Source: Wolbachia endosymbiont of Drosophila innubila (GTDB lineage: Bacteria > Pseudomonadota > Alphaproteobacteria > Rickettsiales > Anaplasmataceae). From it: a stretch of DNA of 32,000 nt. Position numbers and translations under genes: made by a program. The notes beneath the pieces were generated by a model. That model made no database searches and had not been told where the DNA came from. It saw nothing but the letters and a program-made list of their open reading frames with translations. Location: the NCBI RefSeq assembly GCF_021378375.1, contig NZ_CP076228.1, positions 1,020,001 through 1,052,000 on the forward strand, given 5' to 3'. Below, in pieces: positions 8,427 to 32,000 of this stretch (the stretch's first letter is position 1; each line of letters starts with the position of its first letter).

Positions 8427-8611
8427 GGATTCCAGCGCACGGCGCACAGCTGTACAAACATTATGATTTGGAAGCAATTGCCACCAATAGGGTGTCATCC
8501 CAGTGTCTGGGCACTGCCTTTGTGTTTGAGGCAAAACTGGCTATAACATTTAACACACTGCTTTCGCAAATAAATGTTCGTACAGTTATGTGTCAGCTAC
8601 TTGGATGACAC
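8427..8611. repeat. cluster of short palindromic repeat modules (family A) downstream of tldD
   Basis: ggattccagcgcac; gctgtacaaacattatgatttggaagcaattgccaccaatagggtgtcatcccagtgtctgggcactg; inverted partner aaatgttcgtacagttatgtgtcagctacttggatgacac. The same modules recur at 13503, 15482, 16804, 17080, 20277, 25867 and 28639. Confidence 0.85.
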
Positions 8612-9946: not shown

Positions 9947-9980
9947 ATGTATCCGTTCCAACTGCAAATGCACTTTGAAA

Positions 9981-10730
9981 TTACTCTGTACCGTTCACAC
10001 TTAATTCTTCAATCTCACTAATAGAAAGGCCAGTAAACTTAACAATAGTGTTGACATCAACATTATTAGCCAGCATTGCTTTTGCGACTTCAATTTTCCC
10101 TTCAATTTTCCCTTCAATTTTCCCTTCAATTTTCCCTTCAATTTTCCCTTCAATTTTCCCTTCAATTTTCCCTTCAATTTTCCCTTCAATTTTCCCTTCA
10201 ATTTTCCCTTTCTCTATACCTTTTTGTATACCTTTCTCTTCAGCAAGATCAAGTCTGTATTCAAGAATGGCTTCTTCTTTGCGCAGATCCATTATTCTTT
10301 CTTCATAAGTTATTAGATCTTTTTCATTCCAGTGAAACTTATCTAATTCATCATATGCTAGCTTTATTATTGGTGATTTTTCCGCAATTTTTCTGAGATC
10401 TTCGTCCGTTGTTTCATCTGCATATTTGAAAAAAAATAGCCAACGGTCTACTACACTTTCTAGTTGTTCTTCTCTACTCTTAGGAAATTTTGGCAGCTCT
10501 ATGAAGATAAATTGAAAATCTTTTAAGTCATGCTCATTGGTTTTTTCATCTCTTATGGTATGGCTAGATATATAGTCAAGCTTATCAGGGAATAAGGTAC
10601 AATTTGAAATCGCGATAAAGAAAATCTTCTTTAAATCAACGTATTTACCAGATTTATCAGCTTGTCTTGAGTAAGCCTTAGCAGCATAAAGTTGTGCGCG
10701 TTTTTCAAAGCCCTTAGTTTTAGCGACCTG
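9981..10730 (-). pseudogene. Rpn (YhgA-like, PD-(D/E)XK) family recombination-promoting nuclease/putative transposase, copy 1; N-terminal part displaced by a group II intron
   Basis: The minus frame is open from 10730 to the stop at 9981. It reads QVAKTKGFEKRAQLYAAKAYSRQ...FIFIELPKFPKSREEQLESVVDRWLFFFKYADETT...EKGIQKGIEKG(KIEG)n...VKFTGLSISEIEEL. Upstream of 10731 the sequence is intron domain VI/V. Confidence 0.8.
10091..10210. repeat. 12-bp perfect tandem repeat caattttccctt x10, coding (KIEG)n on the minus strand
   Basis: Direct count of ten identical 12-mers. All alternative-frame ORFs here are repeat artefacts. Confidence 0.97.
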
Positions 10731-10848: not shown

Positions 10849-11836
10849 TCATGATTCCTCAGAAAACATCATTCTTAATGGTGACACCAACAGCAGAGAA
10901 CCTTCTCTTGAGAAAGAGCTTGCTAACATTTTTGTTTGTTTCACTCTTTCATCAAAATACTTTTTCCATTTTAAGTCAAGTGGATTTGCATCCGCCCTGA
11001 TTTTAACATGTCGTCTGATAGGTATATCAATCAACCTAAGCAGTCTTAAATACCTTATCTCTTTCGGTTTGTTCTTGCATATGGGTGCAGCAAAGACCCA
11101 TTGGCGTTGTTTCATTACCTTGAAGTAACGATTCTTTATCCAACGTAATCCTTTACGAGGATGTCTTTTCTTTGCCCATTTCCATAGAGCACACATAATT
11201 TCATGGTCTATTTTGTTAAAAGCTCTTTTCGCACACACATGGCTGTAGTAATTTTCCCATCCCCTTAATAGGGGAATTGAGCAACTTGATTAGTACGGCC
11301 TGAGTGTTCGCTATGTTTGCCTTTATCAATGTACGTGCTTTATTAAGAAGTTTCTTAATACTTTCTTTTGAAGGTTTTATAATTAACTTCTTATTATACC
11401 TGCGTACATTACAACCAAGAAAGTCAAACCCTGTTGTAATAGATGTAATTTTTGTTTTCTCTTCGGAAAGGATAAGACCTCTCTCCTGAAGAAAGGACGA
11501 TACTAGAGGTTTTACTTCATTTTCCAGTACTTCACGTGTGATTCCTGAAATGATAAAGTCATCTGCGTACCTGATTACATTTACTCCACTTCTGATTTTG
11601 CTTCTTCTTTTACTGCCAAGTTTACCAAATTGACTTTCCAATGATTTTTCAAGTCCATTTAGGGCTAGATTTGCTAGTATTGGAGAGATGATACTACCTT
11701 GTGGGGTACCTGCAGTTGTGGAATACAGAGTTTTTGATTCTAGGAAGCCAGCTTTTAACCAGCTATGAAGAATTTTCTTCTCCATAGGAATATGCTTCAT
11801 GAGCCATTCATGGTTAATGTTATCAAAACACCCTTT
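10849..11836 (-). pseudogene. group II intron reverse transcriptase/maturase (IEP), N-terminally truncated and frameshifted
   Basis: KGCFDNINHEWLM, GTPQGSIISPILANLALNGLE, IRYADDFIISG (YADD RT active site). The maturase X domain (R)GWENYYSHVCAKRAFNKIDHEI is reached only after a frameshift near 11265..11272, so the ORFs are split as 11216..11869 and 10849..11238. Confidence 0.88.
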
Positions 11837-11861
11837 AGAGGTTGTTCGGAAACTAGTAAAT

Positions 11862-12173
11862 TCAAGCATATTCCCTCTTTAACATAACCCTACTCATAGC
11901 TAGGTATATGAAATTCTCAGTGGATGTTGTGAGTAAATCATACTCCTTCGATAGCCTTCTATTCCTATTAACCCAAGCAAAAGTCCTTTCTACAACCCAT
12001 CTTCTTGGCTGTACTTTAAACCCTTGTTCTCTTGTTGGTAGTAGCTCAGGTGGCGTATCTTTGTGCACCCAAAATCTACATGGAGGCCTTTTAACAATTT
12101 CAATATCTATGTCATATTCTTCCTTTATGTGATTCTTTAAATTTCTTCCTTGGTATCCCATGTCAGCCCACAT
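11862..12173 (-). CDS. IS5-family transposase OrfB (C-terminal DDE part)
   Basis: 103 aa. WADMGYQG and RWVVERTFAWVNRNRRLSKEYD (DDE second D and E regions). It lies in the -1 frame relative to the upstream segment, across an A6 run. Confidence 0.8.
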   Translation of the reverse strand: MWADMGYQGRNLKNHIKEEYDIDIEIVKRPPCRFWVHKDTPPELLPTREQGFKVQPRRWVVERTFAWVNRNRRLSKEYDLLTTSTENFIYLAMSRVMLKREYA

Positions 12174-12313
12174 TTTTTAACTTTAGTATATTTTGTTCTC
12201 ATATTGTTTAATGCTATTTTAATACCATCTCTATCATTTTCGTTAGCAGCGCCTACGTAACAACCTAGTATAAAACCCTGAGTGTCTGTAATTATATGCC
12301 TTTTTCTACCCTT

Positions 12314-12691
12314 TTACTTTTTACTTCCATCATAGCTTTGATCCCCCTTTTCTGTAGTCTTTACAGATTGACTATCTACTATACAGGCACTCGGCTGCTC
12401 ATTCTTTCCTATTTTTCTTCTACTATATTTTGTAATTTCATAATTCATTTTCTCAAAAATTCCCTGCTTCTTCCATTGCCTGAACTGCTCATACACAGTC
12501 TTCCATAGCGGAAAATCATTTGGTAAATACCGCCATTGACACCCTGTACGCAATACATAGAAAATTGCTTCTAATATTTCTTTTTTGCTATACTTTGGCA
12601 GCCTTCCTCCTTTCTTGTATGATACTCTGAAGTGTTTTTCTATTCTTGCCCATTCCCTTTCGCTTAGATCTGTTGGATACTTTTTTCTCAT
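12314..12691 (-). CDS. IS5-family transposase OrfA (N-terminal DNA-binding part)
   Basis: 125 aa. YPTDLSEREWARIEKHF...RTGCQWRYLPNDFPLWKTVYEQFRQW is the typical IS5/IS4 N-terminal domain. It ends at an in-frame TAA that is followed by KGRKRHIITDTQGF in the same frame. Confidence 0.8.
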   Translation of the reverse strand: MRKKYPTDLSEREWARIEKHFRVSYKKGGRLPKYSKKEILEAIFYVLRTGCQWRYLPNDFPLWKTVYEQFRQWKKQGIFEKMNYEITKYSRRKIGKNEQPSACIVDSQSVKTTEKGDQSYDGSKK

Positions 12692-12751
12692 CTTTACCCC
12701 GTACTAAAATTTCAGATATTATAGCCTTTTACTTGTTTCCGGACAACCTCT

Positions 12752-13451
12752 AAGACAAACAGTCGGGTTTATAAAAGGGTATTTGCAACAAATAGGAAGA
12801 GATTTGCAGCTATTCACAAGCATCAAAAGAAACTTAATATTAAGATAAATGATTGCAGAAAATAATATGGAAGATATCGAAATTGCTATAGACAGTACAG
12901 GAATTAGTATATACAACAACACACAGCAAGGAAAATAGCACTGACAGAAAATATCGTGGCTATGAGCAAACGAGAAAATTGCACGTAATGTTGAATATAA
13001 ACAACAAAAAAGCCATAGCTGTAAAATACAGTAACGGCTGATCACTATGGAGCTTGTGATTTGCTAAAAGAAGTTGATTTTCAGCATGCCATAAAAGCAC
13101 TATATGCAGATAGAGCATGATAGGCACAAGTTTTATAAGTTGTGTAACGAATATGATATAAAGACAAAAATTCCACCAATAAACAATGCGGCAGAACATC
13201 CAGAAATAGATTATATGTCTGACAGGAATGCTGCTATTAGGTTAATAAAATTATACGGTGAAGGTGGCATGAAAGAATGGAAAAAAGAAGTAAATTATGG
13301 GAAAAGATCTTATATTGAAGGGTTTTTCTCAAGATTAAAGCAAATATTCGGATTTAGTTTTAGGAATAAATCTGAGATAAATCGAGAAAAAGAACTAAAT
13401 GCTATTTGCTTAATAAATTCACTGATATTGGTATGGCTAAATTTGAGATAG
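12752..13451 (+). pseudogene. remnant of a different IS5-type transposase gene, 5'-truncated by ISWpi1 and carrying stops/frameshifts
   Basis: The + strand reads IAIDSTGISIYN..., KALYADRA then a frameshift at gcatgatagg (expected YADRAYD), then RHKFYKLCNEYDIKTKIPP...GKRSYIEGFFSRLKQIFGF (DDE E region). Confidence 0.7.
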
Positions 13452-13502
13452 TTACATGAATTTACCATAAATCACCATCTCATAAAGTGTGATGCAACAA
13501 AG

Positions 13503-13576
13503 CCATCCCAGTGTCTGGGCACTGGGATGACACACCCTTTTGGATGGAAACCAGTGTCAGGTACTCGGATGACACC
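13503..13576. repeat. family A palindromic repeat immediately after the addB stop codon
   Basis: ccatcccagtgtctgggcactgggatgacacaccc plus ggaaaccagtgtcaggtactcggatgacacc. It ends 3 nt from the addB TAA (13579..13581). Confidence 0.85.
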
Positions 13577-13578
13577 AT

Positions 13579-16389
13579 TTACAACCACTCTCCTACCCTT
13601 TCTAGCTGTTTATAGCTGTTAAATCTCAGGAATTTATCAAAATATGGAGAGGCAATAAAGGGTGTGGAATTACTTAAATAGTTAGATAAAAAACCAGGCA
13701 GATCATTTTTTAATTCTTGCATTTTGTATCTATAATTTTGTATAGAAATAACTTTTATTTTATCATAATCAAGTTTCCAATAAGCAAGTTCTGAGACTTC
13801 TCTTTTTGTTATATGTTCTACCGCTAAGGCTTGTAAAATTAATTGCGGAAAAAATCCCGACATTACTTCTTCATTGGAAGGTGGTGTACCAAGCTTATAG
13901 TCTATAATTGCCACTTGCCCACTTGGTAGATACTCAACTCTATCACATCTTGCTATCAGTGAAATTTCTTGTGGCTTATTTGTCATCCAAGCAGTTTCAT
14001 ACTGATCACAAGAACCAGTTTCACGCGCTGGAATATGAAATATCGGACAGGAAAAGTTCTTTTCCAACTCAACATAATTGCTTCGAGTTTCATCAAATTC
14101 GACAAAAGATTGAATTATCTTTTGTAGTCTTACCCACCACATATTTGAAAAATTAAACTGACTAGTCGAGAATGCTTCTCGTGCAATGCTCATTGGAGAT
14201 TTTTTGTTGCGTAAATATCTTGCAAGAATGTTGTGTACCATAGTGCCAAATTCCAATATCGATGGCTTGAAATTCAAGTCTCTTAATTGTTTAAGACCCA
14301 GTATATATTCAACGTAAAATGAATAAGGATTACGAATTAGCTTTTCTATTGCACTGCAAGACATCACCTGCATTTTTTCTTTTCTAACTTCGGTTTGAGG
14401 TTTTGGCATAGGCTGAGTACATGGAACAGTACATTCAGGCGTATTTAATATCCTTAGCCAATCACGATACGGCTGCTTCCCCTCCTTGAGTAGAATTTCC
14501 AAACGCTGCAATAGAATTGGCTTTCTATGGCTTAGCGATCTTGTAATATAAACCTTACTTGCACAAAACAAATTGTGTAAAGTATAAAAAAAATACCCCT
14601 GCTCTTCTTGTGCAGAAGGAAGATTAAATTTTTCTCTCGTAAGTGCATTCAAAAGCGGACTTTGAAAGCTTGGCGCTTCATTAAATCCAGCAAGTATTAC
14701 AACTTTGTTGTGATATAAGCTGAATTTATTCAAGTCACTTGCTACAAAGAAAAACTCTTTCTCTAAAAATAAGGTCAGAATTTGGCTATATAACTCTAAG
14801 GAGCATTTAATTCCTACACCCTCACATGCATTTGAGAAATTACAGGTAAAATTACCTATTTCACTATTTAGCTCTGAAAAATTTATACCAGATAATATAT
14901 TAATACACTGCAAATGAGTTGCTACCACATCGAAAATAGAGCAATTTATAGAACGAAGTAAAGGATTAAATATAACCTCTAACTTACTGATAATAAGTAA
15001 TATATCTTCTTTGTATTTTAGCTTTTTATGGGCATTGATAGCATTTATAATATCGCTCAGACCATTTGTACTAAAGTTGCGTAATATCTCTATTTCAAAT
15101 TCAGATAAAATCCGAGTGTACTCTTCTTGAGTGTAACCAAAAGTCACTAGCCTATGTTTAAGGAGCGAAAGTAATGACACACTGCTCCAATTTGAGGTCA
15201 AAACTTCGATACTATAAAGCAGAAGCGTTATATAAGGGTAATTTTCCGGTATGGCACTGTGTTGCCTTGATAAACATGCTATACGAGCTGCAAGTAATTT
15301 ATCAAAGACGACCAAAGAAATGTTTTCATAACCTTCATTTTCTATAATTAATGATGTCACTTGTGCTTCTTCCTCTCTGGAATCACAAGTGATGACTTCA
15401 ATATTGCCAACATGTCCACTACTAACTTTGCTTAGATCGGCAGTTGTATCAAAGACGTAATCTAGATATTCCTCAGGACTTCCTGTTATCCCAGCCCTTT
15501 CTTCTGTCATCCAAGTAGCTGACACTGGGATCCAGTTTTCATTATACAGCCACCTGGTGCGCTCATTTAAAGTTAAGTTTTCTGGATCCCAGTGTCTGGG
15601 CACTGGAGAACACGCTTCTGGCAGAAAACTCACATCCCTTCTATCCACTTTTAAATAATCGAGCAGATCTTTCAGGCAATATTGATAATGTTTTTTATCA
15701 AGCGATTTCCAGTCTTTCTCTTTAATTTTCAAATTCAAGTTAGGCAAAATTATTTTTCCAAATGGCAGATCATATATAGCCCTAATTAACGACTTATCCT
15801 TTCCAATTCCAACAAAGATTATATATTGGTCTTTTTGTAAAGAGATTATCATATTGTTTATGTAATCACTCTTATGTTTTAATATATCTACTACTTCTAA
15901 ATCTTTTAAAGTTTTACTCCAAGTCTCAGTGAGTAAGCTTATGAAATTCTCTATTTTTTTTGAATGTTCATCAAATTGATAACAATCCGTTGTTTGGGTA
16001 GATTGAATTTTATCAAGCAGTGATGGCAGGCTATAAGCTAAATCAATTGGAAAATTATCATTATTTTTTCTATTCCACTCCAATATGAATTGAATGAGTA
16101 GCAGTGTCCTTTTTGTTGGCTTGATAACTTTAACCCTATCAAGATTTAATATTAAATCTTCCTCATCAATATTCTCTAGCGAAACTATCTCTGGCAAAAT
16201 TATGCATTTTTTAGCGTTATGATTCTTGAATGCACTCAGCAGCGCTATCACATCCCTCTTGCAAGGAAGTATGATTTTTACTTCAGGAATTTTTTCTCTT
16301 TCATATTCAGAAAATATGTGCTGAACCAGCACATCAAAAAGAGATTCATCCACATTAACGGTAAAAACTCTTCCCACTAACAGTAACAA
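13579..16389 (-). CDS. addB: double-strand break repair protein AddB (alphaproteobacterial type, C-terminal PD-(D/E)XK nuclease)
   Basis: 936-aa ORF. C-terminal nuclease motifs LIARCDRVEY...VAIIDYKLGTPPS...QLILQALA. Start is uncertain (TTG 16389 or GTG 16377). Carries repeat-derived in-frame segments. Confidence 0.82.
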   Translation of the reverse strand: MLLLVGRVFTVNVDESLFDVLVQHIFSEYEREKIPEVKIILPCKRDVIALLSAFKNHNAKKCIILPEIVSLENIDEEDLILNLDRVKVIKPTKRTLLLIQFILEWNRKNNDNFPIDLAYSLPSLLDKIQSTQTTDCYQFDEHSKKIENFISLLTETWSKTLKDLEVVDILKHKSDYINNMIISLQKDQYIIFVGIGKDKSLIRAIYDLPFGKIILPNLNLKIKEKDWKSLDKKHYQYCLKDLLDYLKVDRRDVSFLPEACSPVPRHWDPENLTLNERTRWLYNENWIPVSATWMTEERAGITGSPEEYLDYVFDTTADLSKVSSGHVGNIEVITCDSREEEAQVTSLIIENEGYENISLVVFDKLLAARIACLSRQHSAIPENYPYITLLLYSIEVLTSNWSSVSLLSLLKHRLVTFGYTQEEYTRILSEFEIEILRNFSTNGLSDIINAINAHKKLKYKEDILLIISKLEVIFNPLLRSINCSIFDVVATHLQCINILSGINFSELNSEIGNFTCNFSNACEGVGIKCSLELYSQILTLFLEKEFFFVASDLNKFSLYHNKVVILAGFNEAPSFQSPLLNALTREKFNLPSAQEEQGYFFYTLHNLFCASKVYITRSLSHRKPILLQRLEILLKEGKQPYRDWLRILNTPECTVPCTQPMPKPQTEVRKEKMQVMSCSAIEKLIRNPYSFYVEYILGLKQLRDLNFKPSILEFGTMVHNILARYLRNKKSPMSIAREAFSTSQFNFSNMWWVRLQKIIQSFVEFDETRSNYVELEKNFSCPIFHIPARETGSCDQYETAWMTNKPQEISLIARCDRVEYLPSGQVAIIDYKLGTPPSNEEVMSGFFPQLILQALAVEHITKREVSELAYWKLDYDKIKVISIQNYRYKMQELKNDLPGFLSNYLSNSTPFIASPYFDKFLRFNSYKQLERVGEWL
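13981..14037. repeat. degenerate family A repeat inside addB
   Basis: tgtcatccaagcag...gtttcacgcgctggaatatg resembles the gtcatccaagtagc and cacgcgctggaatgac modules. Encodes ...ARETGSCDQYETAWMTNK. Confidence 0.55.
15482..15613. repeat. family A repeat modules inside addB, in frame
   Basis: cctgttatcccagccctttcttctgtcatccaagtagctgacactgggatccag is near-identical to purL 16804..16857. A second module is tggatcccagtgtctgggcactggagaacac. Encodes PVPRHWDP...WIPVSATWMTEERAGITG. Confidence 0.85.
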
Positions 16390-16476: not shown

Positions 16477-19400
16477 ATGGCAAACATTAGAATAGAAGTT
16501 TTAAATAAATGCGAGCAAATTGGCTGCAGATGGTTAGTCAACGTTTACTCGATTTACATACGCAAAGAATTACCATCCAAATTATATGAAGAAATTTGCG
16601 GGCTATTTTATAATAAAGTCATACAAGACTGCCGTTATTATTCCTACAATGAAAACCTTGAAGAAGTTCCGTATGATTTCATAGAACCACAAGCAAAGTG
16701 GGGCTTGGAAATAAGCTTCCTACCTGGCATGACCGATAATGTAGGCAACACAGTGAAACAAATTGTTAGAGAGTATTTAATAAGCAAAGGCTATATCGAC
16801 CAGCCTGTCATCCCAGCCCCTTCTTTTGTCATCCCAGTGCTTGACACTGGGATCCAGAAAGAGAAAACGCAGATTCCAGCGTCACGCGCTGGAATGACAC
16901 CAATTGAGATCAAAGCAAGAAGTTCAAAATTGATTCTAAGTCAAGGAGATTTACCAACCGAAGATGATATAAAACAAGAGTTCAACCCCATCACTGAGTA
17001 TTGCACACTTATCTGTAAAGAAAATAATAACTATAGCTGGGAATATTATGGTAAATATAAATCATTAAATACCCACTCCGGTGTCATTCCAGCGCGTGAC
17101 CAGGAAAAAAAAGAATGGATCCCAGTGTCAAGCACTGGGATGACAGAAAAAAAGGCTGGGATGACAAAAGAGAGCACTGGAGTGATATCAAGTAGTAATG
17201 GGGCTAAATCTGTTGATTTAAATGTAAGTGACCAAGAACTTGAGAAAATCAGCAGAGATGGAATCGATGGTAATGGCACTTTAGGGCTCTCGCTGGCAGC
17301 AATGAAAGCTATAAAGGATTACTTTAAAAAACTTGGTAGAAATCCATATGATATTGAACTTGAGTCTCTGGCACAGACTTGGTCTGAACATTGTAAACAC
17401 AATATTTTTTGCTCCCCTATTGATGAAATAAAAGACGGTCTATATGCTCATTATATTAAGCGTGCAACGCGTGAGATAAATTCTGACATATGCGTGTCAG
17501 TTTTCTCCGACAACGCAGGAGGAATAATTTTTGATGACGATTACTTGATTGTAGATAAAGTTGAAACTCACAATAGCCCTTCAGCTCTTGATCCATTTGG
17601 TGGAGCAATGACCGGAGTGCTTGGAGTTAATCGCGATATAGTGGGTTTCGGGAAAGGCGCAGAGCCTATAATGAATACCTATTACTTTTGCTTTGCCAAA
17701 GAAGCAAAAGGCAAATTTTATAGGGATAAAGAGCGCACTGATGAGATCTTACCGCCAAAATATATAATGAAAGAAGTGATTCGCGGTGTTAATGTTGCTG
17801 GTAATTGCTCTGGTATTCCAACACAACTTGGATCGGTATATTTCGACGATAGATTTTGTGGCAAGCCATTAGTTTTTGTCGGAAGCATTGGAATTATTCC
17901 ACGCAATATAAATAATGCACCTTCACACATTAAAGGACCAAAAAATGGCGATAAGATTGTAATTATTGGCGGAAGAGTTGGAAGAGATGGAATTCACGGT
18001 GCAACGTTCTCTTCAGAGGCTTTATCGGGAAATAGCCCTTCAACAATTGTGCAAATTGGTGACCCTATAACACAAAAAAAATTATCCAATGCCGTCATAA
18101 AAGCAAGAGATCTTGATCTTTATAATGCAATAACGGATAACGGAGCAGGTGGGCTGTCGTCGTCTATTGGTGAAATGGGAAAAGACGGATTTGAAGTTGA
18201 TTTGAGCAAGGTTCTCCTTAAAAACGATGGTATGGCTCAGTGGGAAATATGGATATCAGAATCACAAGAGAGAATGACCTTAGCAGTGCCAGAAGAAAAT
18301 CTCCCTATGTTTAAGCAAATCATGAAAAAACATGATGTGGAGGTTTGTGTGATTGGAGAGTTTAATGAGAGTGGTAAAGCTGTTGTTAAATGTCCTGAAG
18401 GGACAGTAATAATGGACATCGAAACTGAATTTCTGCATGATGGTAATCCCAAAGTGCATTTACAGACGAAACCGTGGTCTAAGGGGCTTCCAGCGCTATG
18501 CGCTGGAATGACAACAAGTTCGCCTTCTTTAGCAATTGAACTAAAAGAAATGCTGAGCAGACCAAACATTTGCAGCAAAGAGTTCATAGTGGTGCAATAT
18601 GACCATGAGGTTCAAGGGTCGTCAGTGCTGAAACCACTGCAGGGCAAGGGAAGAGTGTGCAGTGAAGCTATTGTTTCAAGGCCAATCCTTTCTTCAAATA
18701 AAGGTGTTGTAAAATCGCAAGGATTTGGCTCAAGTTATGGAGAAATTGACACCTACCACATGGCAGCATGTGCAATTGACACCGCGATACGCAACTATGT
18801 AGCCGCAGGAGGAAATATAAATCATCTAGCGTTGCTCGACAATTTTTGTTGGTGTGATGCTTATAATCCAGAAAGGTTGTGGCAACTAAAGAAAGCTGCA
18901 GAGGCTTGTTACGACTTCGCAACTGCATTTAAAACACCATTCATATCCGGAAAAGACAGTATGTTCAATGACTTCAAGGGATATGATGAAAATGGCGAGA
19001 AAGTGATAATCTCTGCACCACCTTCATTACTCATCTCAGCAATTGGAATTATAGAAAATATTGAAAATGCGGTATCGCTTGATGTAAAAATGCCAGGGGA
19101 CTTGATATATGTGCTTGGAGAAACACTTGATGAACTTGGTAGATCTGAATATCAGTTATATAGTGGAATAGGTAATAACAACGTACCAAAAGTTGATGCA
19201 AAGAGCGCTAGGAAGTTGTATGAGCGTTACAACCAGGCAATAAAAGATGGCATAATTGCCTCTGCAATTGCACCAAACTTAGGCGGATTAGTTATTGCTC
19301 TGGCAAAATCGCTAATTGCAGGAGACCTTGGTGCTGAAATCGATCTTTCACTAGTCCCAATAGGAAAAATACAAAATACAGACATAATAAACAAGATAAT

Positions 19401-19575
19401 AATGTTTTCTGAATCGCAAAGTAGAATTTTGGTTACTATTGCACCACAAAATCAGAAGAGGTTTGAAGAATTGTTTGAAGGTGCAGTTTATTCATGTATT
19501 GGCAAAGTAACAGAGAAAAAGGTGCTAAACATAAAGGATGTTTTAAAAGTAGATCTGAAAGATGTGGCATGCTAA
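16477..19575 (+). CDS. purL: phosphoribosylformylglycinamidine synthase, PurL (large form with N-terminal PurS-like region)
   Basis: 1032 aa. ETHNSPSALDPFGGAMTGVLGVNRD, GRDGIHGATFSS, DNGAGGLSSSIGEM, FISGKDSM are AIR-synthase-related/FGAM synthase motifs. Confidence 0.9.
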   Translation: MANIRIEVLNKCEQIGCRWLVNVYSIYIRKELPSKLYEEICGLFYNKVIQDCRYYSYNENLEEVPYDFIEPQAKWGLEISFLPGMTDNVGNTVKQIVREYLISKGYIDQPVIPAPSFVIPVLDTGIQKEKTQIPASRAGMTPIEIKARSSKLILSQGDLPTEDDIKQEFNPITEYCTLICKENNNYSWEYYGKYKSLNTHSGVIPARDQEKKEWIPVSSTGMTEKKAGMTKESTGVISSSNGAKSVDLNVSDQELEKISRDGIDGNGTLGLSLAAMKAIKDYFKKLGRNPYDIELESLAQTWSEHCKHNIFCSPIDEIKDGLYAHYIKRATREINSDICVSVFSDNAGGIIFDDDYLIVDKVETHNSPSALDPFGGAMTGVLGVNRDIVGFGKGAEPIMNTYYFCFAKEAKGKFYRDKERTDEILPPKYIMKEVIRGVNVAGNCSGIPTQLGSVYFDDRFCGKPLVFVGSIGIIPRNINNAPSHIKGPKNGDKIVIIGGRVGRDGIHGATFSSEALSGNSPSTIVQIGDPITQKKLSNAVIKARDLDLYNAITDNGAGGLSSSIGEMGKDGFEVDLSKVLLKNDGMAQWEIWISESQERMTLAVPEENLPMFKQIMKKHDVEVCVIGEFNESGKAVVKCPEGTVIMDIETEFLHDGNPKVHLQTKPWSKGLPALCAGMTTSSPSLAIELKEMLSRPNICSKEFIVVQYDHEVQGSSVLKPLQGKGRVCSEAIVSRPILSSNKGVVKSQGFGSSYGEIDTYHMAACAIDTAIRNYVAAGGNINHLALLDNFCWCDAYNPERLWQLKKAAEACYDFATAFKTPFISGKDSMFNDFKGYDENGEKVIISAPPSLLISAIGIIENIENAVSLDVKMPGDLIYVLGETLDELGRSEYQLYSGIGNNNVPKVDAKSARKLYERYNQAIKDGIIASAIAPNLGGLVIALAKSLIAGDLGAEIDLSLVPIGKIQNTDIINKIIMFSESQSRILVTIAPQNQKRFEELFEGAVYSCIGKVTEKKVLNIKDVLKVDLKDVAC
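16804..16901. repeat. family A composite repeat (two 9-bp-stem hairpins) inside purL, in frame
   Basis: cctgtcatcccagccccttcttttgtcatcccagtgcttgacactgggatccagaaagagaaaacgcagattccagcgtcacgcgctggaatgacacc. Encodes PVIPAPSFVIPVLDTGIQKEKTQIPASRAGMTP. Confidence 0.9.
17080..17170. repeat. family A composite repeat inside purL, opposite orientation to 16804..16901, in frame
   Basis: ggtgtcattccagcgcgtgac...tggatcccagtgtcaagcactgggatgaca...ggctgggatgaca aligns module by module with the reverse complement of 16804..16901. Encodes GVIPARDQEKKEWIPVSSTGMTEKKAGMT. Confidence 0.9.
18488..18513. repeat. single hairpin module of family A inside purL
   Basis: ttccagcgc-tat-gcgctggaa followed by tgaca. Encodes LPALCAGMT. 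Confidence 0.7.
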
Positions 19576-20276: not shown

Positions 20277-20693
20277 AACTGTACAAACATTATGATTTGA
20301 GCCTATCAGGGGGGTGTCATTCCAGTCTGGAATCCAGAAAAAAGAATGGTGTCATCCCAGTGCTTGACACATAGCTGTACGAACATTCATTTTTGAAGGT
20401 AAATTGCACAGCAAATGGTGTCATTCCAGTCTGGAATCCAGAAATTTTGCTTATAACTGAGCTGATGAGCTAAAGGTAGTTGTCTTACGCTAAAACAAAC
20501 GTTTTTAATTAAGTTGCATAGAACCAGTGTCTGGGCACTGGCCCACTGGTGGGAATTGCTCCTAAACTACAACGTTCGTACAGCTATGTGCTTGACACTG
20601 GGATGACATCATAGGGGCACTGGCCTACTTAACCGTCATACCGTCGCGGTATCTCAGCCGCTAACAAGTAGCGGAATGACGATTTATCAAACG
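20277..20693. repeat. dense array of family A modules plus one family B element in the 616-bp gap upstream of uvrA
   Basis: aactgtacaaacattatgatttg; ggtgtcattccagtctggaatccagaaa (twice, near 20313 and 20417); ggtgtcatcccagtgcttgacac; agctgtacgaacatt; ccagtgtctgggcactgg; inverted acaacgttcgtacagctatgtgcttgacactgggatgaca; family B at 20634..20681. Confidence 0.88.
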
Positions 20694-23974: not shown

Positions 23975-24046
23975 GATTTGATAAACGACAAATTCGTCAT
24001 CCCGCTGCTTGTTAGCGGGATCTAGAGATACCGCGGCGGTATGACG
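23975..24046. repeat. family B structured repeat, inverted relative to the copy at 20634..20681
   Basis: cgtcatcccgctgcttgttagcgggatctagagataccgcggcggtatgacg is the reverse complement, with a few changes, of cgtcataccgtcgcggtatctcagccgctaacaagtagcggaatgacg. The flanking tttgataaa motif is also shared. Confidence 0.85.
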
Positions 24047-24452: not shown

Positions 24453-25365
24453 AGAGGTTGTCCGGAAACTAGTAAATTCAAGCATATTCCCTCTTTAACA
24501 TAACCCTACTCATAGCTAGGTATATGAAATTCTCAGTGGATGTTGTGAGTAAATCATACTCCTTCGATAGCCTTCTATTCCTATTAACCCAAGCAAAAGT
24601 CCTTTCTACAACCCATCTTCTTGGCTGTACTTTAAACCCTTGTTCTCTTGTTGGTAGTAGCTCAGGTGGCGTATCTTTGTGCACCCAAAATCTACATGGA
24701 GGCCTTTTAACAATTTCAATATCTATGTCATATTCTTCCTTTATGTGATTCTTTAAATTTCTTCCTTGGTATCCCATGTCAGCCCACATTTTTTTTAACT
24801 TTAGTATATTTTGTTCTCATATTGTTTAATGCTATTTTAATACCATCTCTATCATTTTCGTTAGCAGCGCCTACGTAACAACCTAGTATAAAACCCTGAG
24901 TGTCTGTAATTATATGCCTTTTTCTACCCTTTACTTTTTACTTCCATCATAGCTTTGATCCCCCTTTTCTGTAGTCTTTACAGATTGACTATCTACTATA
25001 CAGGCACTCGGCTGCTCATTCTTTCCTATTTTTCTTCTACTATATTTTGTAATTTCATAATTCATTTTCTCAAAATTCCCTGCTTCTTCCATTGCCTGAA
25101 CTGCTCATACACAGTCTTCCATAGCGGAAAATCATTTGGTAAATACCGCCATTGACACCGTACGCAATACATAGAAAATTGCTTCTAATATTTCTTTTTT
25201 GCTATACTTTGGCAGCCTTCCTCCTTTCTTGTATGATACTCTGAAGTGTTTTTCTATTCTTGCCCATTCCCTTTCGCTTAGATCTGTTGGATACTTTTTT
25301 CTCATCTTTACCCCGTACTAAAATTTCAGATATTATAGCCTTTTACTTGTTTCCGGACAACCTCT
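24453..25365 (-). mobile_element. ISWpi1-like IS5-family insertion sequence, copy 2 (913 bp), OrfA destroyed by indels
   Basis: Perfect IRs agaggttgtccggaaac/gtttccggacaacctct. OrfB (24478..24789) is identical to copy 1. The OrfA region differs from copy 1 by four small indels (T8 vs T6, ttt vs tttt, aaaa vs aaaaa, loss of ct). Confidence 0.9.
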
Positions 25366-25366
25366 G

Positions 25367-25885
25367 AAACGCTATAAAAAATTTCCTGATAATCTCTCGC
25401 ATATAACACAAAGTTGGGATACTGCGGTTTCAACAAGTAACATGAGCAACTTTAGTGTCTGCACCACCTGGGCAAAAATAGATAATAAATTCTATTTACT
25501 CGACGTATATCGCGCAAAGCTTGAGTATCCAAAGCTTAAAGAACAGGTTTTGTCACTAGCTGCAAGATGGACGCCACACGCAATTTTAATCGAAGCAAAA
25601 ACAAGTGGTCAACAATTGGTGCAAGAGCTAAAGACAAACAGTGATTTACCGATTATTGAAATAGTGCCACATGATGACAAGCTCACTCGATTTCATCAAA
25701 TTGTTCCGATTATAGAGTCTGGCAAGGTTTTTCTGCCACATCAAGCAGTATGGCTGAACGATTTTGAGTATGAGATTTTAATGTTTCCTGAAACGCGCCA
25801 CGACGACCAAGTGGACAGTACCGTGCAATATTTGCAGTGGGTGAGAAACAGTACCTCTAGGGTTACGGCTGTACGGGCATTGTGA
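25367..25885 (+). pseudogene. phage terminase large subunit, C-terminal nuclease-domain fragment (WO-prophage-like remnant)
   Basis: The frame is open from the IS boundary. It reads ...TQSWDTAVSTSNMSNFSVCTTWAKIDNKFYLLDVYRAKLEYPKLK...LIEAKTSGQQLVQEL...FPETRHDDQVDSTVQYLQW, which are terminase large-subunit C-terminal motifs. No ATPase N-terminal part is present. Confidence 0.8.
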
Positions 25886-25966
25886 TTTGAGAGCAATTTC
25901 CACAAGGGAGGATGTCATCCCAGCGCTCCTTTTTTTGTCATGCAAGTAGCTGACACTGGAATCTAG
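25867..25966. repeat. family A composite repeat overlapping the end of the terminase fragment
   Basis: ggctgtacgggcattgtgatttgagagcaatttccacaagggaggatgtcatcccagcgc...gtcatgcaagtagctgacactggaatctag. Confidence 0.85.
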
Positions 25967-26161: not shown

Positions 26162-28611
26162 ATGGCATTATTAATAGTTGAATCACCTGCGAAAGCAAAG
26201 ACAATAGGTAAATATTTGAGTAAAGAGTTCAAAGTAGCTGCATCCTTTGGACATGTGAGGGATCTTCCAGCAAAAAACGGTTCTGTCGATCCGGATAATG
26301 ATTTTACTATAAAGTATGAAACCATTGAAAAAGCAGAAAAGTATATAAAAGAGCTAGTAAAAGCCGCAAGCAAAACATCAGATATATATCTTGCAACAGA
26401 CCCAGACAGAGAAGGGGAAGCAATGGCTTGGCATGTGATAGAGACATTAAAAGAAAAGAAAGCAATCAGTAATGAAAACAACATTTATAGAGTAGTCTTT
26501 AATGAGATAACAAAAAGAGCAGTACAAGAAGCAATAAAAAATCCACGTGAAATTAATATGGATTTAGTGCGTGCACAACAAGCACGTAGAGCTTTGGATT
26601 ATCTAGTTGGATTTAGTTTGTCACCACTGCTGTGGACAAAATTGTCGGGAAGCAAGTCTGCAGGGCGAGTGCAGTCTGTTGCATTAAAGATTATATGCGA
26701 ACGAGAAGATGAAATTAGTAAATTTATAACACAGGAGTATTGGAGCATAAAAGCAGAAATGCAAAATAGCAAAGATGAGGCTTTTTTTGCTATGCTAAGC
26801 CACTATGACAATAAAAAGCTAGAAAAATTTGATATTAAGAATGAAGAAGAAGCAAAGAACTTAGTCAGGGAGATTGAATCAAGGCAATATGCTGTAAGCA
26901 CAGTAGAACGCAAGCAAGTTAAGAGAAACCCGCTTCCTCCGTTTATTACTTCAAGTCTTCAGCAAGATGCAGTGAATAAACTGTATTTTAATGTGAAAAG
27001 TGTTATGCGCATAGCGCAAAATTTATATGAAGGTATCGATATTGGTGGTGAAACTGTAGGGTTGATAACTTACATGCGTACAGATGGGTTTCATATTGCA
27101 GATGAGGCTATAAACTCAATTAGAGGGTCAATTAAGTCATTATATGGTGATAAATATTTACCGCAGTCTCCTCGTAAATATGTAAAAAAGGTCAAAAATG
27201 CTCAAGAAGCACATGAAGCAATTCGTCCAACTGATATCAATAGAACGCCGGGTAGTATTAAGGATTACTTAACGCCAGAGCAATTTAAATTGTATGATTT
27301 AATCTGGAAAAGGACCATTGCAAGTCAAATGGAGTCGGCGATTCTTGATCAAGTGGTAGTCGAAATTAGTTCTACTGACCAGAAAGTAATTCTGCGAGCA
27401 AGTGGATCAAGTATATTCTTTGATGGTTTTTATAGAGTCTACCAAGATAACATAGAAGCCGAAAATGAAGGCCTGCTACCTGCCATGAAGGAAGGGGAAG
27501 CGTGTAAGCTGATTTCAGTTGAGCCAAAACAACATTTCACTCAACCGCCACCTCGTTATAGTGAAGCAAGTATCGTAAAAAAATGGAAGAAATCGGTATA
27601 GGTCGACCATCAACTTATGCAACAATTATTTCGGTATTACAAGATCGTGAGTACGTTTCATTGGATAGCAAAAGATTTATTCCAAGCAGCCGCGGTAAAA
27701 TCGTTACTATATTTTTAGAAACTTTTTTTCAGCGTTGTGTAGAGTATGATTTCACAGCACAAATGGAAGAGAAGCTTGATTTAATTTCAAATGGACATGC
27801 AGATTGGAAAAAAGAATTAGGCCACTTTTGGGTGCCATTTTTTGGTCATGTAAACTCTGTCAAGCAAATGACGCATGATGAAGTTTTCAGCGGCATTCAC
27901 GATTTGGTAATCGATTGGTTTTGTTCAGAAGAAGGAAGAAAAGAGGTGAATACGAAATGCCCTGCTTGCTTAGGTGGCATATTGAAATTGAACTTTGGAA
28001 AAGCCGGGGTGTTCCTTGGATGTTCTAACTATCCTGAATGCAACCATACAAAAGAAATTACAGGTAGTAACGACAATTCAGAATATCCAAAAAGTTTAGG
28101 TATAGATGATATAACAAACCAAGAAGTGATGATCAAAAAGGGTCCTTTTGGACTTTATCTGGAGTTTAATAACGAGTTAAAAAAGAAAAAAACGGTTTCC
28201 ATACCAAAAGATATAAATGTTAATGAGATTGATCTGAGCACCGCTACTCAGTTACTTTCCTTGCCAAAAGTAATCGGAGAACACCCTGAAACCGGAAAGG
28301 AAGTAAAAATAGGCCTTGGGCGATTTGGGTACTATATTTTCTATGATGGTAGATACTTTTCTCTTAAGAAAAGCTCCAAAGAGGTGCTGAATACAGAATT
28401 GAGCGAAGCTGTACAAATTATTGCAAACAGTCCACGCAAAGAGTTAAAATCTCTCGGGGTTAATGAAAAGGGAAAAGAAGTTTTTATCTGCAACGGTAGG
28501 TACGGATTCTATATAAAATGCGGTAAAACAAACGTTGCTTTGGGCAAGAGTGCAGATATTGAGAGTATAGATCTGGAGAAGGCTTTAGAGTTGATTAAGG
28601 GTAAGAAATAG
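26162..28611 (+). CDS. topA: DNA topoisomerase I, reading frame broken by a 1-nt shortfall in an A7 run (27577..27583)
   Basis: The two ORFs (26162..27601, 27583..28611) join as ...PPRYSEASIVKK|MEEIGIGRPSTYA, the conserved TopA motif. Also a TOPRIM N-terminus (LLIVESPAKAKTIGKYL, DPDREGEA), an active-site region ITYMRTD, and a C-terminal zinc-ribbon CPACLGG...CSNYPEC. Confidence 0.92.
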
Positions 28612-28638
28612 ACTTCTTGCATAACCATATGCTCTTTA

Positions 28639-28764
28639 TTGTCATTCCAGCGCGTGACGCTGGAATCTAGAAAAAAAGAACCTGGATGCCAGTGTCTGGG
28701 CACTGGCATGACACCCTTTCTGGTAGAGGTTGCTCTCAAATCACAACGTGCATACAACTGCAGC
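28639..28764. repeat. family A composite repeat between convergent topA and trhO, inverted relative to 25867..25966
   Basis: ttgtcattccagcgcgtgacgctggaatctagaaaaaaagaacctggatgccagtgtctgggcactggcatgacaccc...gctctcaaatcacaacgtgcatacaactgcagc. Confidence 0.88.
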
Positions 28765-29732: not shown

Positions 29733-31331
29733 ATGTTTTTAAGAGTATTTAAAAATATATTCTTATTTTTAGTAAGCATATTATTCGTCTGCCCAATATT
29801 ATCATTAATATCAATCTTATTTACAGATTCAGCGAATTCCGAATGGGTAATCAGTACACTTTTTCCTGAATATATACTGAGTACGTTAATTTTGATGGTA
29901 GGAGTAGGGGGAATATCTTTCATATTTGGAGTAATTCCAGCTTGGCTCACCACATTTTTTTCATTTCCTGGAAGTAAAATTTTTGAGATTGCTTTGTTCT
30001 TTCCGATATCGATTCCTGGATATATAGTAGCGTTCGTCTATGTAAATACGCTAGAGTTTTCAGGTCCGGTGCAGAGCTTATTAAGAGACATTTTAGATTG
30101 GAGCAAAGGTGACTATTGGTTTCCTGAAATAAAATCCCTAGGTGGTGGAATATTAGTAATGGGATTCAGCCTATATCCATACGTTTATATGTTAGTTCGC
30201 TCAAGTCTAAAGAATGTTAGTAACTCAGTCACTATTGCGTCAACGCTTGGGTTCTCCTCATTGAAGAGCCTGTTTTCTGTTATCATACCCTCCATACGCC
30301 CATCAATTATAGCTGGGTTGTCTTTGGTACTAATGGAAGTAATTACAGATTTCGGCACACCACAGTTTCTTGCTATCGATACTTTTACGACAGGAATATA
30401 TCGCACCTGGTTTTTACTGCATGACAAATATTCAACTACTGTTTTAGCAGTTGCAGAATTAATTTTCGTTGTGATACTAATAGCTATCGAAAAAAAACTA
30501 CAAAAAAAAGGAATATCTTACTCTTCAATCAATACCAATTCGGACTATCACAACAAACGGAGTATAAGTGGCGCTATGCCGTTGATCTTTCCTTATCTTA
30601 TGTGTGTATTGCCGATCTTAATAGGTTTTATTTTGCCAATGATTCCGCTCATATATTGGAGCATAGAGAAGGGGTTTTTCATATACGAAGCAAGATTCTA
30701 TAACATAATAGCAAATAGCATTAGTTTATCATTTATCACCGCATTAATCTCAATTAGCATTGCAATAATGATTGGATATACGGCGCGTAAAAATAAGGTA
30801 ATCAACAATATAGCGCGTCTCATTTCTTTAGGCTACGCAATTCCAAATGCAATTATCGCAATTAGTATAATAATATTTTTAAGCAGAATATCCTCTTTCA
30901 TTACTCAATATGTTGTGGAAATTAGCTTGGTAGGAACTATTGGCGCATTAGTTTACTCATATTTATTTCGTTTTTTTGCTATATCTTTCAAGGCGGTAGA
31001 GTCAGGGCTCAAAAAAACACCAAATGAAATTGAGTGGACTGCATATACTATGGGTCATGGACCTATTTCCACATGTTTGAATGTTCATATCCCTCTCATC
31101 AAGAAGAGTATATTATCGGGATTTTTGCTCGTATTTATGGATACTATCAAAGAGCTCACAGCAACACTCATTATAAGACCATTTAATTTTGAAACTATAT
31201 CAACTAGAATATATGAACTTGTAAGCGATGAGCGCTATAGAGAAGCTGCCCCATTTTCGTTAATAATAGTTATAATAGGCTTAATCTCTACAATAACCTT
31301 ATTTACACTTGATGATAAGGATAAAAAATAA
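29733..31331 (+). CDS. fbpB: ABC transporter permease with duplicated permease domains, iron(III)/FbpB-like
   Basis: 532 aa, about 12 TM segments. Two MetI-like permease halves (EAA-type loops near ...SLKNVSNSVTIASTLG and ...KKTPNEIEWTAYTMG). Substrate assignment is by family resemblance only. Confidence 0.72.
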   Translation: MFLRVFKNIFLFLVSILFVCPILSLISILFTDSANSEWVISTLFPEYILSTLILMVGVGGISFIFGVIPAWLTTFFSFPGSKIFEIALFFPISIPGYIVAFVYVNTLEFSGPVQSLLRDILDWSKGDYWFPEIKSLGGGILVMGFSLYPYVYMLVRSSLKNVSNSVTIASTLGFSSLKSLFSVIIPSIRPSIIAGLSLVLMEVITDFGTPQFLAIDTFTTGIYRTWFLLHDKYSTTVLAVAELIFVVILIAIEKKLQKKGISYSSINTNSDYHNKRSISGAMPLIFPYLMCVLPILIGFILPMIPLIYWSIEKGFFIYEARFYNIIANSISLSFITALISISIAIMIGYTARKNKVINNIARLISLGYAIPNAIIAISIIIFLSRISSFITQYVVEISLVGTIGALVYSYLFRFFAISFKAVESGLKKTPNEIEWTAYTMGHGPISTCLNVHIPLIKKSILSGFLLVFMDTIKELTATLIIRPFNFETISTRIYELVSDERYREAAPFSLIIVIIGLISTITLFTLDDKDKK

Positions 31332-31336
31332 ACGTA

Positions 31337-32000
31337 ACCGTTCACACTTAATTCTTCAATCTCACTAATAGAAAGGCCAGTAAACTTAACAATAGTGTTG
31401 ACATCAACATTATTAGCCAGCATTGCTTTTGCGACTTCAATTTTCCCTTCAATTTTCCCTTCAATTTTCCCTTCAATTTTCCCTTCAATTTTCCCTTCAA
31501 TTTTCCCTTCAATTTTCCCTTCAATTTTCCCTTCAATTTTCCCTTCAATTTTCCCTTTCTCTATACCTTTTTGTATACCTTTCTCTTCAGCAAGATCAAG
31601 TCTGTATTCAAGAATGGCTTCTTCTTTGCGCAGATCCATTATTCTTTCTTCATAAGTTATTAGATCTTTTTCATTCCAGTGAAACTTATCTAATTCATCA
31701 TATGCTAGCTTTATTATTGGTGATTTTTCCGCAATTTTTCTGAGATCTTCGTCCGTTGTTTCATCTGCATATTTGAAAAAAATAGCCAACGGTCTACTAC
31801 ACTTTCTAGTTGTTCTTCTCTACTCTTAGGAAATTTTGGCAGCTCTATGAAGATAAATTGAAAATCTTTTAAGTCATGCTCATTGGTTTTCATCTCTTAT
31901 GGTATGGCTAGATATATAGTCAAGCTTATCAGGGAATAAGGTACAATTTGAAATCGCGATAAAGAAAATCTTCTTTAAATCAACGTATTTACCAGATTTA
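31337..32000 (-). pseudogene. Rpn-family nuclease/putative transposase, copy 2 (runs off the window); two frameshifting homopolymer indels relative to copy 1
   Basis: Identical to 9990..10656 except A7 (31776..31782) vs A8 and T4 (31887..31890) vs T6. The tracked ORF 31235..31789 reads through the homology boundary into the antisense of the fbpB 3' end. Confidence 0.82.
31438..31557. repeat. 12-bp tandem repeat caattttccctt x10, second copy
   Basis: Direct count. Same unit and same copy number as 10091..10210. Confidence 0.97.

Follow-up and report, generated by a model that had tools for sequence, protein, structure and literature searches.

In the Wolbachia endosymbiont of Drosophila innubila, a 32,000-nt stretch of the genome (NZ_CP076228.1, positions 1,020,001 to 1,052,000 of the forward strand, GCF_021378375.1; hereafter the window) carries a purL gene with two in-frame copies of one type of palindromic repeat in opposite orientations. 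The original prediction, made from the DNA alone, had pointed to this arrangement, and the observation of two inverted in-frame copies is confirmed. The copies are built of short hairpins of the repetitive extragenic palindrome (REP) type. Very probably, such selfish hairpin DNA entered purL in two independent insertions at permissive sites, was filtered by reading frame and protein structure, and was later remodelled. The purL case is a clear instance of a phenomenon documented in Rickettsia and Wolbachia; it is less striking than originally rated, because in-frame palindromes have already been documented in Wolbachia addA, addB, priA and comEC. What is new is modest and concerns purL as a host gene with three sites, a natural allele series, a rule of one open frame per orientation, a hairpin core nearly identical to REPs of Rhizobiales and a conversion-like tract between inverted copies.

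The open reading frame (ORF) at 16477..19575 on the plus strand, with 1032 codons, encodes PurL of a supergroup-A, wMel-like Wolbachia, and the protein is 100% identical to PurL entries of supergroup-A Wolbachia from Drosophila and other insects. Pfam domains in the protein are FGAR-AT_linker (aa 268-308), AIRS and AIRS_C. Among solved structures, the best matches are T. thermophilus PurL (E = 3e-58) and the FGAM synthetase of Salmonella, the homology beginning at ~aa 263, and 35/35 invariant columns of the PurL family alignment are kept in the window protein. The gene and its repeat-derived stretches are as follows, in window positions:

16477..19575, plus strand: purL, a fused PurS-like N-domain, linker and FGAM synthetase domain, without glutaminase domain
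16804..16901, plus strand: site 1 composite, aa 110-142, PVIPAPSFVIPVLDTGIQKEKTQIPASRAGMTP, net 96 nt relative to empty alleles
17080..17185, minus strand: site 2 composite of the same type, inverted, aa 202-237, GVIPARDQEKKEWIPVSSTGMTEKKAGMTKESTGV
18486..18514, plus strand: site 3, single REP hairpin with ATGACA tag, stem 18488-18508, in frame at aa ~671-680, LPALCAGMTT

That the segments 16804..16901 and 17080..17170 are reverse complements of each other, as had been claimed, is borne out by a repeat search of the window, which finds the inverted arms 16806-16856 / 17116-17166 (51 nt, 92%) and 16881-16901 / 17080-17100 (21 nt, 100%), and by alignment. Global alignment of the first segment with the reverse complement of the second yields 75/101 matches and a score of 49.5; the direct-orientation alignment of the purL copies scores 8.0, and 500 shuffles score -9.8 ± 3.8 with a maximum of 0.5, far below the inverted alignment. 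The matches to intergenic DNA claimed at 28639, 20310 and 8490 are likewise real (28640-28668, 29 nt, 100%; 20350-20370, 21 nt, 100%; 8492-8516). The half-site GTCATCCCAG, with at most one mismatch, occurs 23 times in the window and 0.58 times in shuffles. Similarity to the intergenic copies is far above chance, and chance resemblance is excluded by these repeat statistics.

The hairpin unit follows the pattern TGTCATYCCAGYG-N5-CRCTGGRATCCA, one unit being spelled out as (G)GTGTCAT-YCCAGYG-N5-CRCTGGR-ATCCA(G). Stems are of 9 bp and loops of 5 nt, and the copies measure 98 nt at site 1 and 91-106 nt at site 2. Site 1 starts with the half-site TGTCATCCCAGC (16806-16817), continues with 10 nt, hairpin A (16831-16853, stem CCCAGTG, loop CTTGA), an A-rich 15-nt spacer and hairpin B (16873-16895, stem TCCAGCG, loop TCACG), and ends with the tag/tail ATGACACC. 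Site 2 reads from a one-armed hairpin B (17080-17100) through a spacer to hairpin A (17119-17141) and to extra half-sites at 17156-17166 and 17173-17185; its termini 17082-17093 and 17155-17166 pair. The initial description of one 98-bp element with 9-bp-stem hairpins in each copy is amended accordingly: the inverted copies stand, and the single unit is replaced by a composite of short REP hairpins. Two complete hairpins are present at site 1 and only one at site 2, because the second hairpin there lost an arm. The core of the extent given for site 2, 17080..17170, also stands, and repeat-derived half-sites run on to ~17185.

Both purL copies are repeated palindromes of ~100 nt that have inverted termini and are predicted to form a stable stem-loop (DNA fold z-scores of -5.4 and -4.9), as in elements of the Rickettsia palindromic element (RPE) type. 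The tails of the units read ...GGATCCA and ...GACACCA. The tag is TGTC, not CGTC, in 21/22 repeat copies of the window, this stem type reading TGTC(AT); CGTC is found in near-identical units of Rhizobiales and in sister hairpins of the window at 20634-20685 and 23991-24046.

Translation reproduces the peptides originally quoted, with both segments in frame within the 1032 codons. In each orientation of the element exactly one of the three reading frames is stop-free, and purL uses that frame both times. Owing to the palindromic nature of the hairpins, the peptides from the two orientations are related (...VIPxxDxGI... and ...IPxSxxGMT...), a relationship that had been recognized beforehand.

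An AlphaFold2 model of the window PurL, based on 114 sequences, has a mean predicted local distance difference test score (pLDDT) of 88.9 and a predicted template modelling score of 0.91. Superposition (Foldseek) on the Salmonella and human FGAM synthetases gives a template modelling score of 0.75, glutaminase domain apart. Values of pLDDT below 50 are confined to aa 60-63, 113-134, 136-138 and 196-240, and residues 671-680 score 54; the two long low-confidence segments and the dip at 671-680 coincide with the three repeat-derived stretches. The location in a linker proposed for both copies holds for site 2, which sits where the N-domain meets the linker, flanked by the final strand of the N-domain (185-191) and the first helix of the linker domain (252-261). 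It does not hold for site 1, which lies in a loop within the PurS-like N-domain, with helix 88-103 on one side and strand 145-155 on the other. In this model the peptides occupy surface or loop positions compatible with the fold, and the inserts are predicted to encode disordered surface loops that leave the enzyme fold intact.

Allele series across Wolbachia

Alleles were surveyed in the best 120 PurL clusters, all from Wolbachia or Wolbachia-like metagenome-assembled genomes (MAGs) and 963-1126 aa long. At site 1, 43 clusters are empty (‘YIDENVC-IKARSSK’), ~54 have the form of the window (form A) and 23 a differently built form B (‘PSVMQISPSVIPARDAGIYRSQCRGTGMTDERAGMTPIE’); at the DNA level the site is a clean presence/absence of 96 nt (32 codons). 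Site 2 is empty in 11 clusters (‘KFTQYQSVKKDAKS’), with a short ‘KFTQYQSVKKD’ there in empty alleles, and its element is absent in clusters P0095 and P0050. Filled site-2 alleles comprise at least four mosaics, labelled W (that of the window), N, R and tandem N+W, plus rarer ones. Site 3 is also polymorphic among strains, with forms including EWIPVSATCMTS and EPAVIPAHNTEMIL; some inserts are longer by as much as ~50 aa. One Wolbachia-like PurL cluster of 1126 aa (P0117), covering 67% of the query, has the extra precomputed Pfam assignments PF13424, PF24885 and PF13374 and may be a fusion or a mis-assembly.

The divergent strain wCfeT has no residues at site 1, nor do the 11 homologues compared that are more distant still (one is named Pelagibacteraceae); in all of them site 2 holds only short unrelated linkers. 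The alignment with orthologues suggested at the outset shows the segments to be lineage-specific: empty alleles occur in many Wolbachia, and wCfeT and the distant homologues, instead of carrying homologous residues, lack the segments. From this comparison the purL segments are evidently insertions. All four combinations of occupancy of the two sites exist among the 120 clusters, 11 of the 12 allele combinations are seen, and the W-type core of site 2 is also present in group-B strains with an empty site 1. Sites 1 and 2 appear to have been filled independently of each other.

At each site the alleles have their outer ends in common and vary in hairpin type, spacer and number of half-sites; the sites therefore evolve by module replacement and not by point mutation. 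They are mosaic and, as judged from these alleles, recombine freely among strains. A wRi-like site-2 allele was also considered as an element flipped in place, an idea that was dropped, all site-2 alleles being heads-out dimers with common ends and different internal modules.

The purL of strain P0033 (GCA_964030905.1) differs from that of the window in 24 of 3108 alignment columns, 20 of which are clustered at 17101-17115, where gctggaatctgcgttttctctttc stands in place of the window's caggaaaaaaaagaa. Site 2 of P0033 is full-length, with the missing hairpin arm restored, and is 100% reverse-complement identical to site 1 over 76 nt (92/96 overall). Since the window-type spacer is common to other group-A strains and to group-B wStri, the P0033 state is considered derived. 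Gene conversion probably produced site 2 of P0033, with site 1 or an identical copy at another locus as the template, and part of the similarity between the two purL copies may be kept up by such conversion.

Relatives and known repeat families

When the 98-nt unit is compared by BLASTN with the window and 0.93 Mb of fetched loci, the only near-full-length relatives lie within purL, in comEC of one other Wolbachia and at one wCori intergenic site (73 nt, 88%). The comEC match, from Wolbachia of Psylliodes chrysocephala (locus L113), covers 79 nt with 87% identity to purL site 1, encodes the peptide VIPALPFVIPVLDTGIQKKKIWIPASHAGMTP and lies in an ORF that matches Pfam Competence. Within the window the best match of each purL copy is the other copy, and shorter modules are common. 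A high-copy 98-bp master element, considered as a candidate, is unsupported given the few near-full-length copies in this search.

A species-level scan (one genome per species) for GTCATYCCAGYG-N5-CRCTGGRAT gives copy numbers and a taxonomic range that are lower bounds. Among the matches listed are many Wolbachia lineages (wMoz, wStri, wCon, wCori), Rickettsiales MAGs, a Hyphobacterium MAG and, in Rhizobiales, Brucella endophytica, Brucella sp., Mesorhizobium sp. and Paramesorhizobium deserti. Across 120 loci, the loops CGTGA, CTTGA and CTTGT occur 59, 53 and 33 times. The Rhizobiales core CGTCATCCCAGTGCTTGTCACTGGGATCCA is almost identical to the Wolbachia unit and forms tails-out pairs ~110 bp apart with partly conserved spacers:

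Rhizobiales pairs (Brucella, Paramesorhizobium, Mesorhizobium): L026 6495-6630, L027 2502-2638, L054 2339-2471, L060 1627-1760

RPEs were reportedly described by Ogata et al. in 2000 and 2002, and Wolbachia palindromic elements (WPEs) by Ogata, Suhre and Claverie in 2005. The mention, in the original prediction, of similar elements in Wolbachia was right, the 2005 work being cited in PMC3733652 and PMC4224334. The behaviour expected of RPE-like elements is found as well, with ~100-nt palindromes that are intergenic and in frame in conserved genes and that are lineage-specific. RPEs, as summarized in PMC2229807, and the purL element are both ~100-nt lineage-specific palindromes with inverted termini, encoding surface peptides that spare the protein. 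They differ in genus and in build, the Wolbachia copies being mosaics assembled from 30-nt hairpin modules instead of a single long stem-loop, and are likened here by behaviour.

In-frame ‘WPE-like’ regions without premature stops were masked in Wolbachia addA, addB and priA (Badawi et al. 2014, PMC4224334). The region in addB, at nucleotide positions (np) 778-1023 in that study, coincides with the copy in the addB gene of the window (np 776-908), which is of the same family as the purL copies. WPEs and WPE-like regions resemble the purL copies in genus, in being in frame and in having no premature stops.

The element also corresponds to a published class, the CGTC-4 REP family, which includes the insert VIPVLDTGI at aa 151-159 of wRi ComEC (Di Nocera et al. 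2013, PMC3733652); the identical peptide, encoded by the same hairpin, is found at aa 120-128 of PurL, in site 1. In CGTC-4 REPs as in the purL element, stem-loops of ~30 nt have loops of 5 nt and tails of the CCA type, are arranged in dimers or clusters and are sometimes intragenic. Membership of the purL element in this class is supported, apart from the TGTC tag in this window; a further difference lies in the arrangement, tails-out for the Rhizobiales pairs and heads-out for the purL composites. For Wolbachia, the table of intragenic REPs in the same paper contains ComEC only; the paper equates R. conorii RPE-4 with CGTC-4 and holds the CGTC-4 hairpins of wRi and wMel to be unrelated to the WPEs of wBm (PMC3733652). 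Owing to this separation, the name ‘WPE’ may not strictly apply to the purL element. In the literature searched, purL is not named as a host of Wolbachia palindromes.

REPs and REPINs mobilized by REP-associated tyrosine transposases (RAYTs, which are IS200/IS605-like HUH enzymes) have in common with the purL element short hairpins, a conserved terminal tetranucleotide, inverted dimers and an absence of target-site duplications. They bear a GTAG tag, unlike the CGTC/TGTC seen here, and no HUH/Y1 transposase occurs among the ORFs of the window.

Origin and persistence of the inserts

In the preferred explanation, two independent copies of a non-autonomous REP-type palindrome would have been fixed in frame in purL in a sub-lineage of supergroup-A Wolbachia. 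Their survival would depend on the addition of whole codons (+96 nt at site 1), on use of the single stop-free frame of each orientation and on position, namely a surface loop of the PurS-like N-domain for site 1 and the connector between N-domain and linker for site 2, with disordered peptides at both. After insertion the composites would have behaved as modular cassettes, with hairpin units, spacers and half-sites swapped, lost and added, alleles shuffled by recombination among strains, and the two inverted copies homogenizing each other by gene conversion. Spread may have relied on an IS200/RAYT-like HUH transposase that recognizes the single-strand hairpin, or on copying by recombination, and the inserts would be selectively near-neutral passengers.

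Several points weigh against this explanation. The window ORFs include no suitable transposase, the mobile-element genes among them being limited to fragments of the IS5 family and of group II introns, and according to the literature CGTC REPs have no dedicated transposase. The full-length 98-nt composite is rare in the 0.93 Mb sampled and may therefore be assembled in situ from hairpin units rather than moved whole. Comparison of filled and empty alleles reveals neither target-site duplications, as flank a classical miniature inverted-repeat transposable element (MITE), nor sharp junctions at either site, and ~12 nt beside site 1 differ between filled and empty alleles, so that the exact insertion event cannot be reconstructed. 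Finally, the 120 protein clusters are non-independent samples.

A single insertion followed by copying, in which an inverted duplication within the gene, or gene conversion, would have turned an unrelated or minimal hairpin at the other site into its present sequence, would fit the probable exchange between sites in P0033, the fact that each copy finds its best window match in the other, and the many hairpin mosaics at site 2 among strains, whose content is clearly replaceable. Such a course is unlikely in view of the independent occupancy of the sites across strains and of the features that site 2 of the window has for itself and that are missing from site 1 (truncated arm, extra half-sites). 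The strains of group B with a W-type core and an empty site 1 argue in the same direction, as site 2 therefore needed no site-1 donor; the W allele of site 2 is suggested to be older than any filled allele of site 1. Even less credible is an ancestral PurL sequence deleted in the ‘empty’ strains, with a secondary likeness to intergenic repeats. The position of site 2 in a variable-length linker, which most Wolbachia have filled, would agree with it; against it, wCfeT and all distant homologues inspected are without site-1 residues, both segments correspond to hairpin units of intergenic regions and other genes with 87-100% identity, and the same units are found in intergenic DNA of Rhizobiales. 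Taken together, these considerations leave that origin a very slight probability.

A selected function is also to be weighed, in which the ~90-nt long-range inverted repeat would regulate purL through its mRNA or DNA, or the peptides would tune the N-domain and linker. The long-range inverted repeat anticipated at the RNA level is present in silico: in the fold of 16790-17200 the copies pair together at -163.5 kcal/mol (shuffles -85.5 ± 5.0; z = -15.6), a very stable predicted duplex, and the inserts are kept stop-free in many strains. Such stability, however, is automatic where two inverted copies are present, and no sign of use of the long-range RNA pairing was found, nor was the intervening segment inverted or deleted in any of the 120 clusters. 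Furthermore, purL is intact whether a strain has no insert, one or both, the peptides are highly variable and of predicted disorder, and the one Rickettsia RPE insert tested, in gmk of R. conorii, was neutral or slightly detrimental (PMC2229807). A function maintained by selection is accordingly given little credence. It is tempting, if speculative, to regard the N-terminal part of PurL as a recombination-driven hypervariable cassette site, where exchange of REP hairpin modules by gene conversion, among genomic copies and between the two inverted copies of the gene, would create strain-specific loops and the ~90-nt inverted repeat might also affect the mRNA or trigger replication-linked rearrangement and so become visible to selection; this is a long shot, of the same order as the single insertion. 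Independent insertion of REP-type hairpins, followed by remodelling, remains by far the most probable origin.

The case offers a well-resolved example of selfish hairpin DNA inside the gene of an enzyme of an essential pathway, purine synthesis, and gives three literatures (RPE, WPE and CGTC-REP) a concrete sequence in common. Wolbachia and Rhizobiales have the hairpin core in common, and the sequence contains evidence of homogenization between intragenic inverted copies. The natural series of alleles with none, one or both inserts can be used for testing the neutrality of such inserts. The three purL sites, being highly polymorphic, are possible markers for strain typing and should be masked in Wolbachia phylogenetics and selection scans.

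Other copies and neighbouring features

The window has members of the family at three sites of purL, within addB and in five regions between genes; copies are both intergenic and in frame in conserved genes (purL, addB and, in another strain, comEC). Those outside purL are:

15482..15614, minus strand: in-frame composite of the same family in addB (ORF 13579..16389), encoding PVPRHWDPEN...LYNENWIPVSATWMTEERAGIT
28635..28714: intergenic heads-out hairpin dimer with hairpin B, A-rich spacer and second hairpin, architecture as in the purL copies, 29 nt 100% identical to 16871-16899
20313..20612: intergenic cluster of hairpin units (20313-20340, 20346-20370, 20417-20444, 20590-20612) with a larger inverted-repeat module
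8492..8611: intergenic hairpin units (8492-8516, 8590-8611)
13502..13578: intergenic hairpin units downstream of addB (13502-13533, 13552-13578)
25913..25966, plus strand: intergenic copy of the 54-nt module ‘half-site + hairpin A’

The addB copy, in a gene for a PD-(D/E)XK nuclease, shares its subtype with the N allele that other strains have at purL site 2. The sister hairpins at 20634-20685 and 23991-24046 have the true CGTC tag and another stem (CGTCATACCGTCGCGGTAT, CGTCATCCCGCTGCTTGTTAGCGGGAT), lie as inverted pairs on either side of uvrA and appear to be a second REP subfamily in this genome. Larger inverted-repeat modules (20346-20612, 8445-8611 and 25870-25926 / 28700-28756) combine a hairpin unit with a conserved ‘GCTGTACRAACATT...’ segment; with arms of 42-57 nt and 77-84% identity, they could represent a longer element of MITE-like character with these hairpins at its core. 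At the gathering threshold, Rfam detects one tRNA only in the window, and therefore no known RNA family covers the repeats.

Other mobile or repeated DNA is also present. Two ~920-bp copies of an IS4/IS5-family element (11835-12756 and 24453-25370), with a DUF4096 transposase and terminal inverted repeats of 24-26 nt, are 98-100% identical, and the first disrupts a group II intron reverse-transcriptase/maturase ORF (10849-11869). A ~680-bp duplicate with 100% identity (9978-10656 and 31325-32000, 21.3 kb apart) holds a perfect 12-nt tandem repeat (CTTCAATTTTCC x 10.2, 10088-10210). The gene topA, for DNA topoisomerase I, is split into the overlapping ORFs 26162-27601 and 27583-28611 beside an A-run (aaaaaaa, ~27577-27583), which could point to a pseudogene with a frameshift, to slippage at this site or to an error of sequencing. 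A lone 147-aa ORF (25442-25885) that adjoins an IS copy and repeat units matches only a terminase RNaseH-like domain and is probably a prophage remnant.

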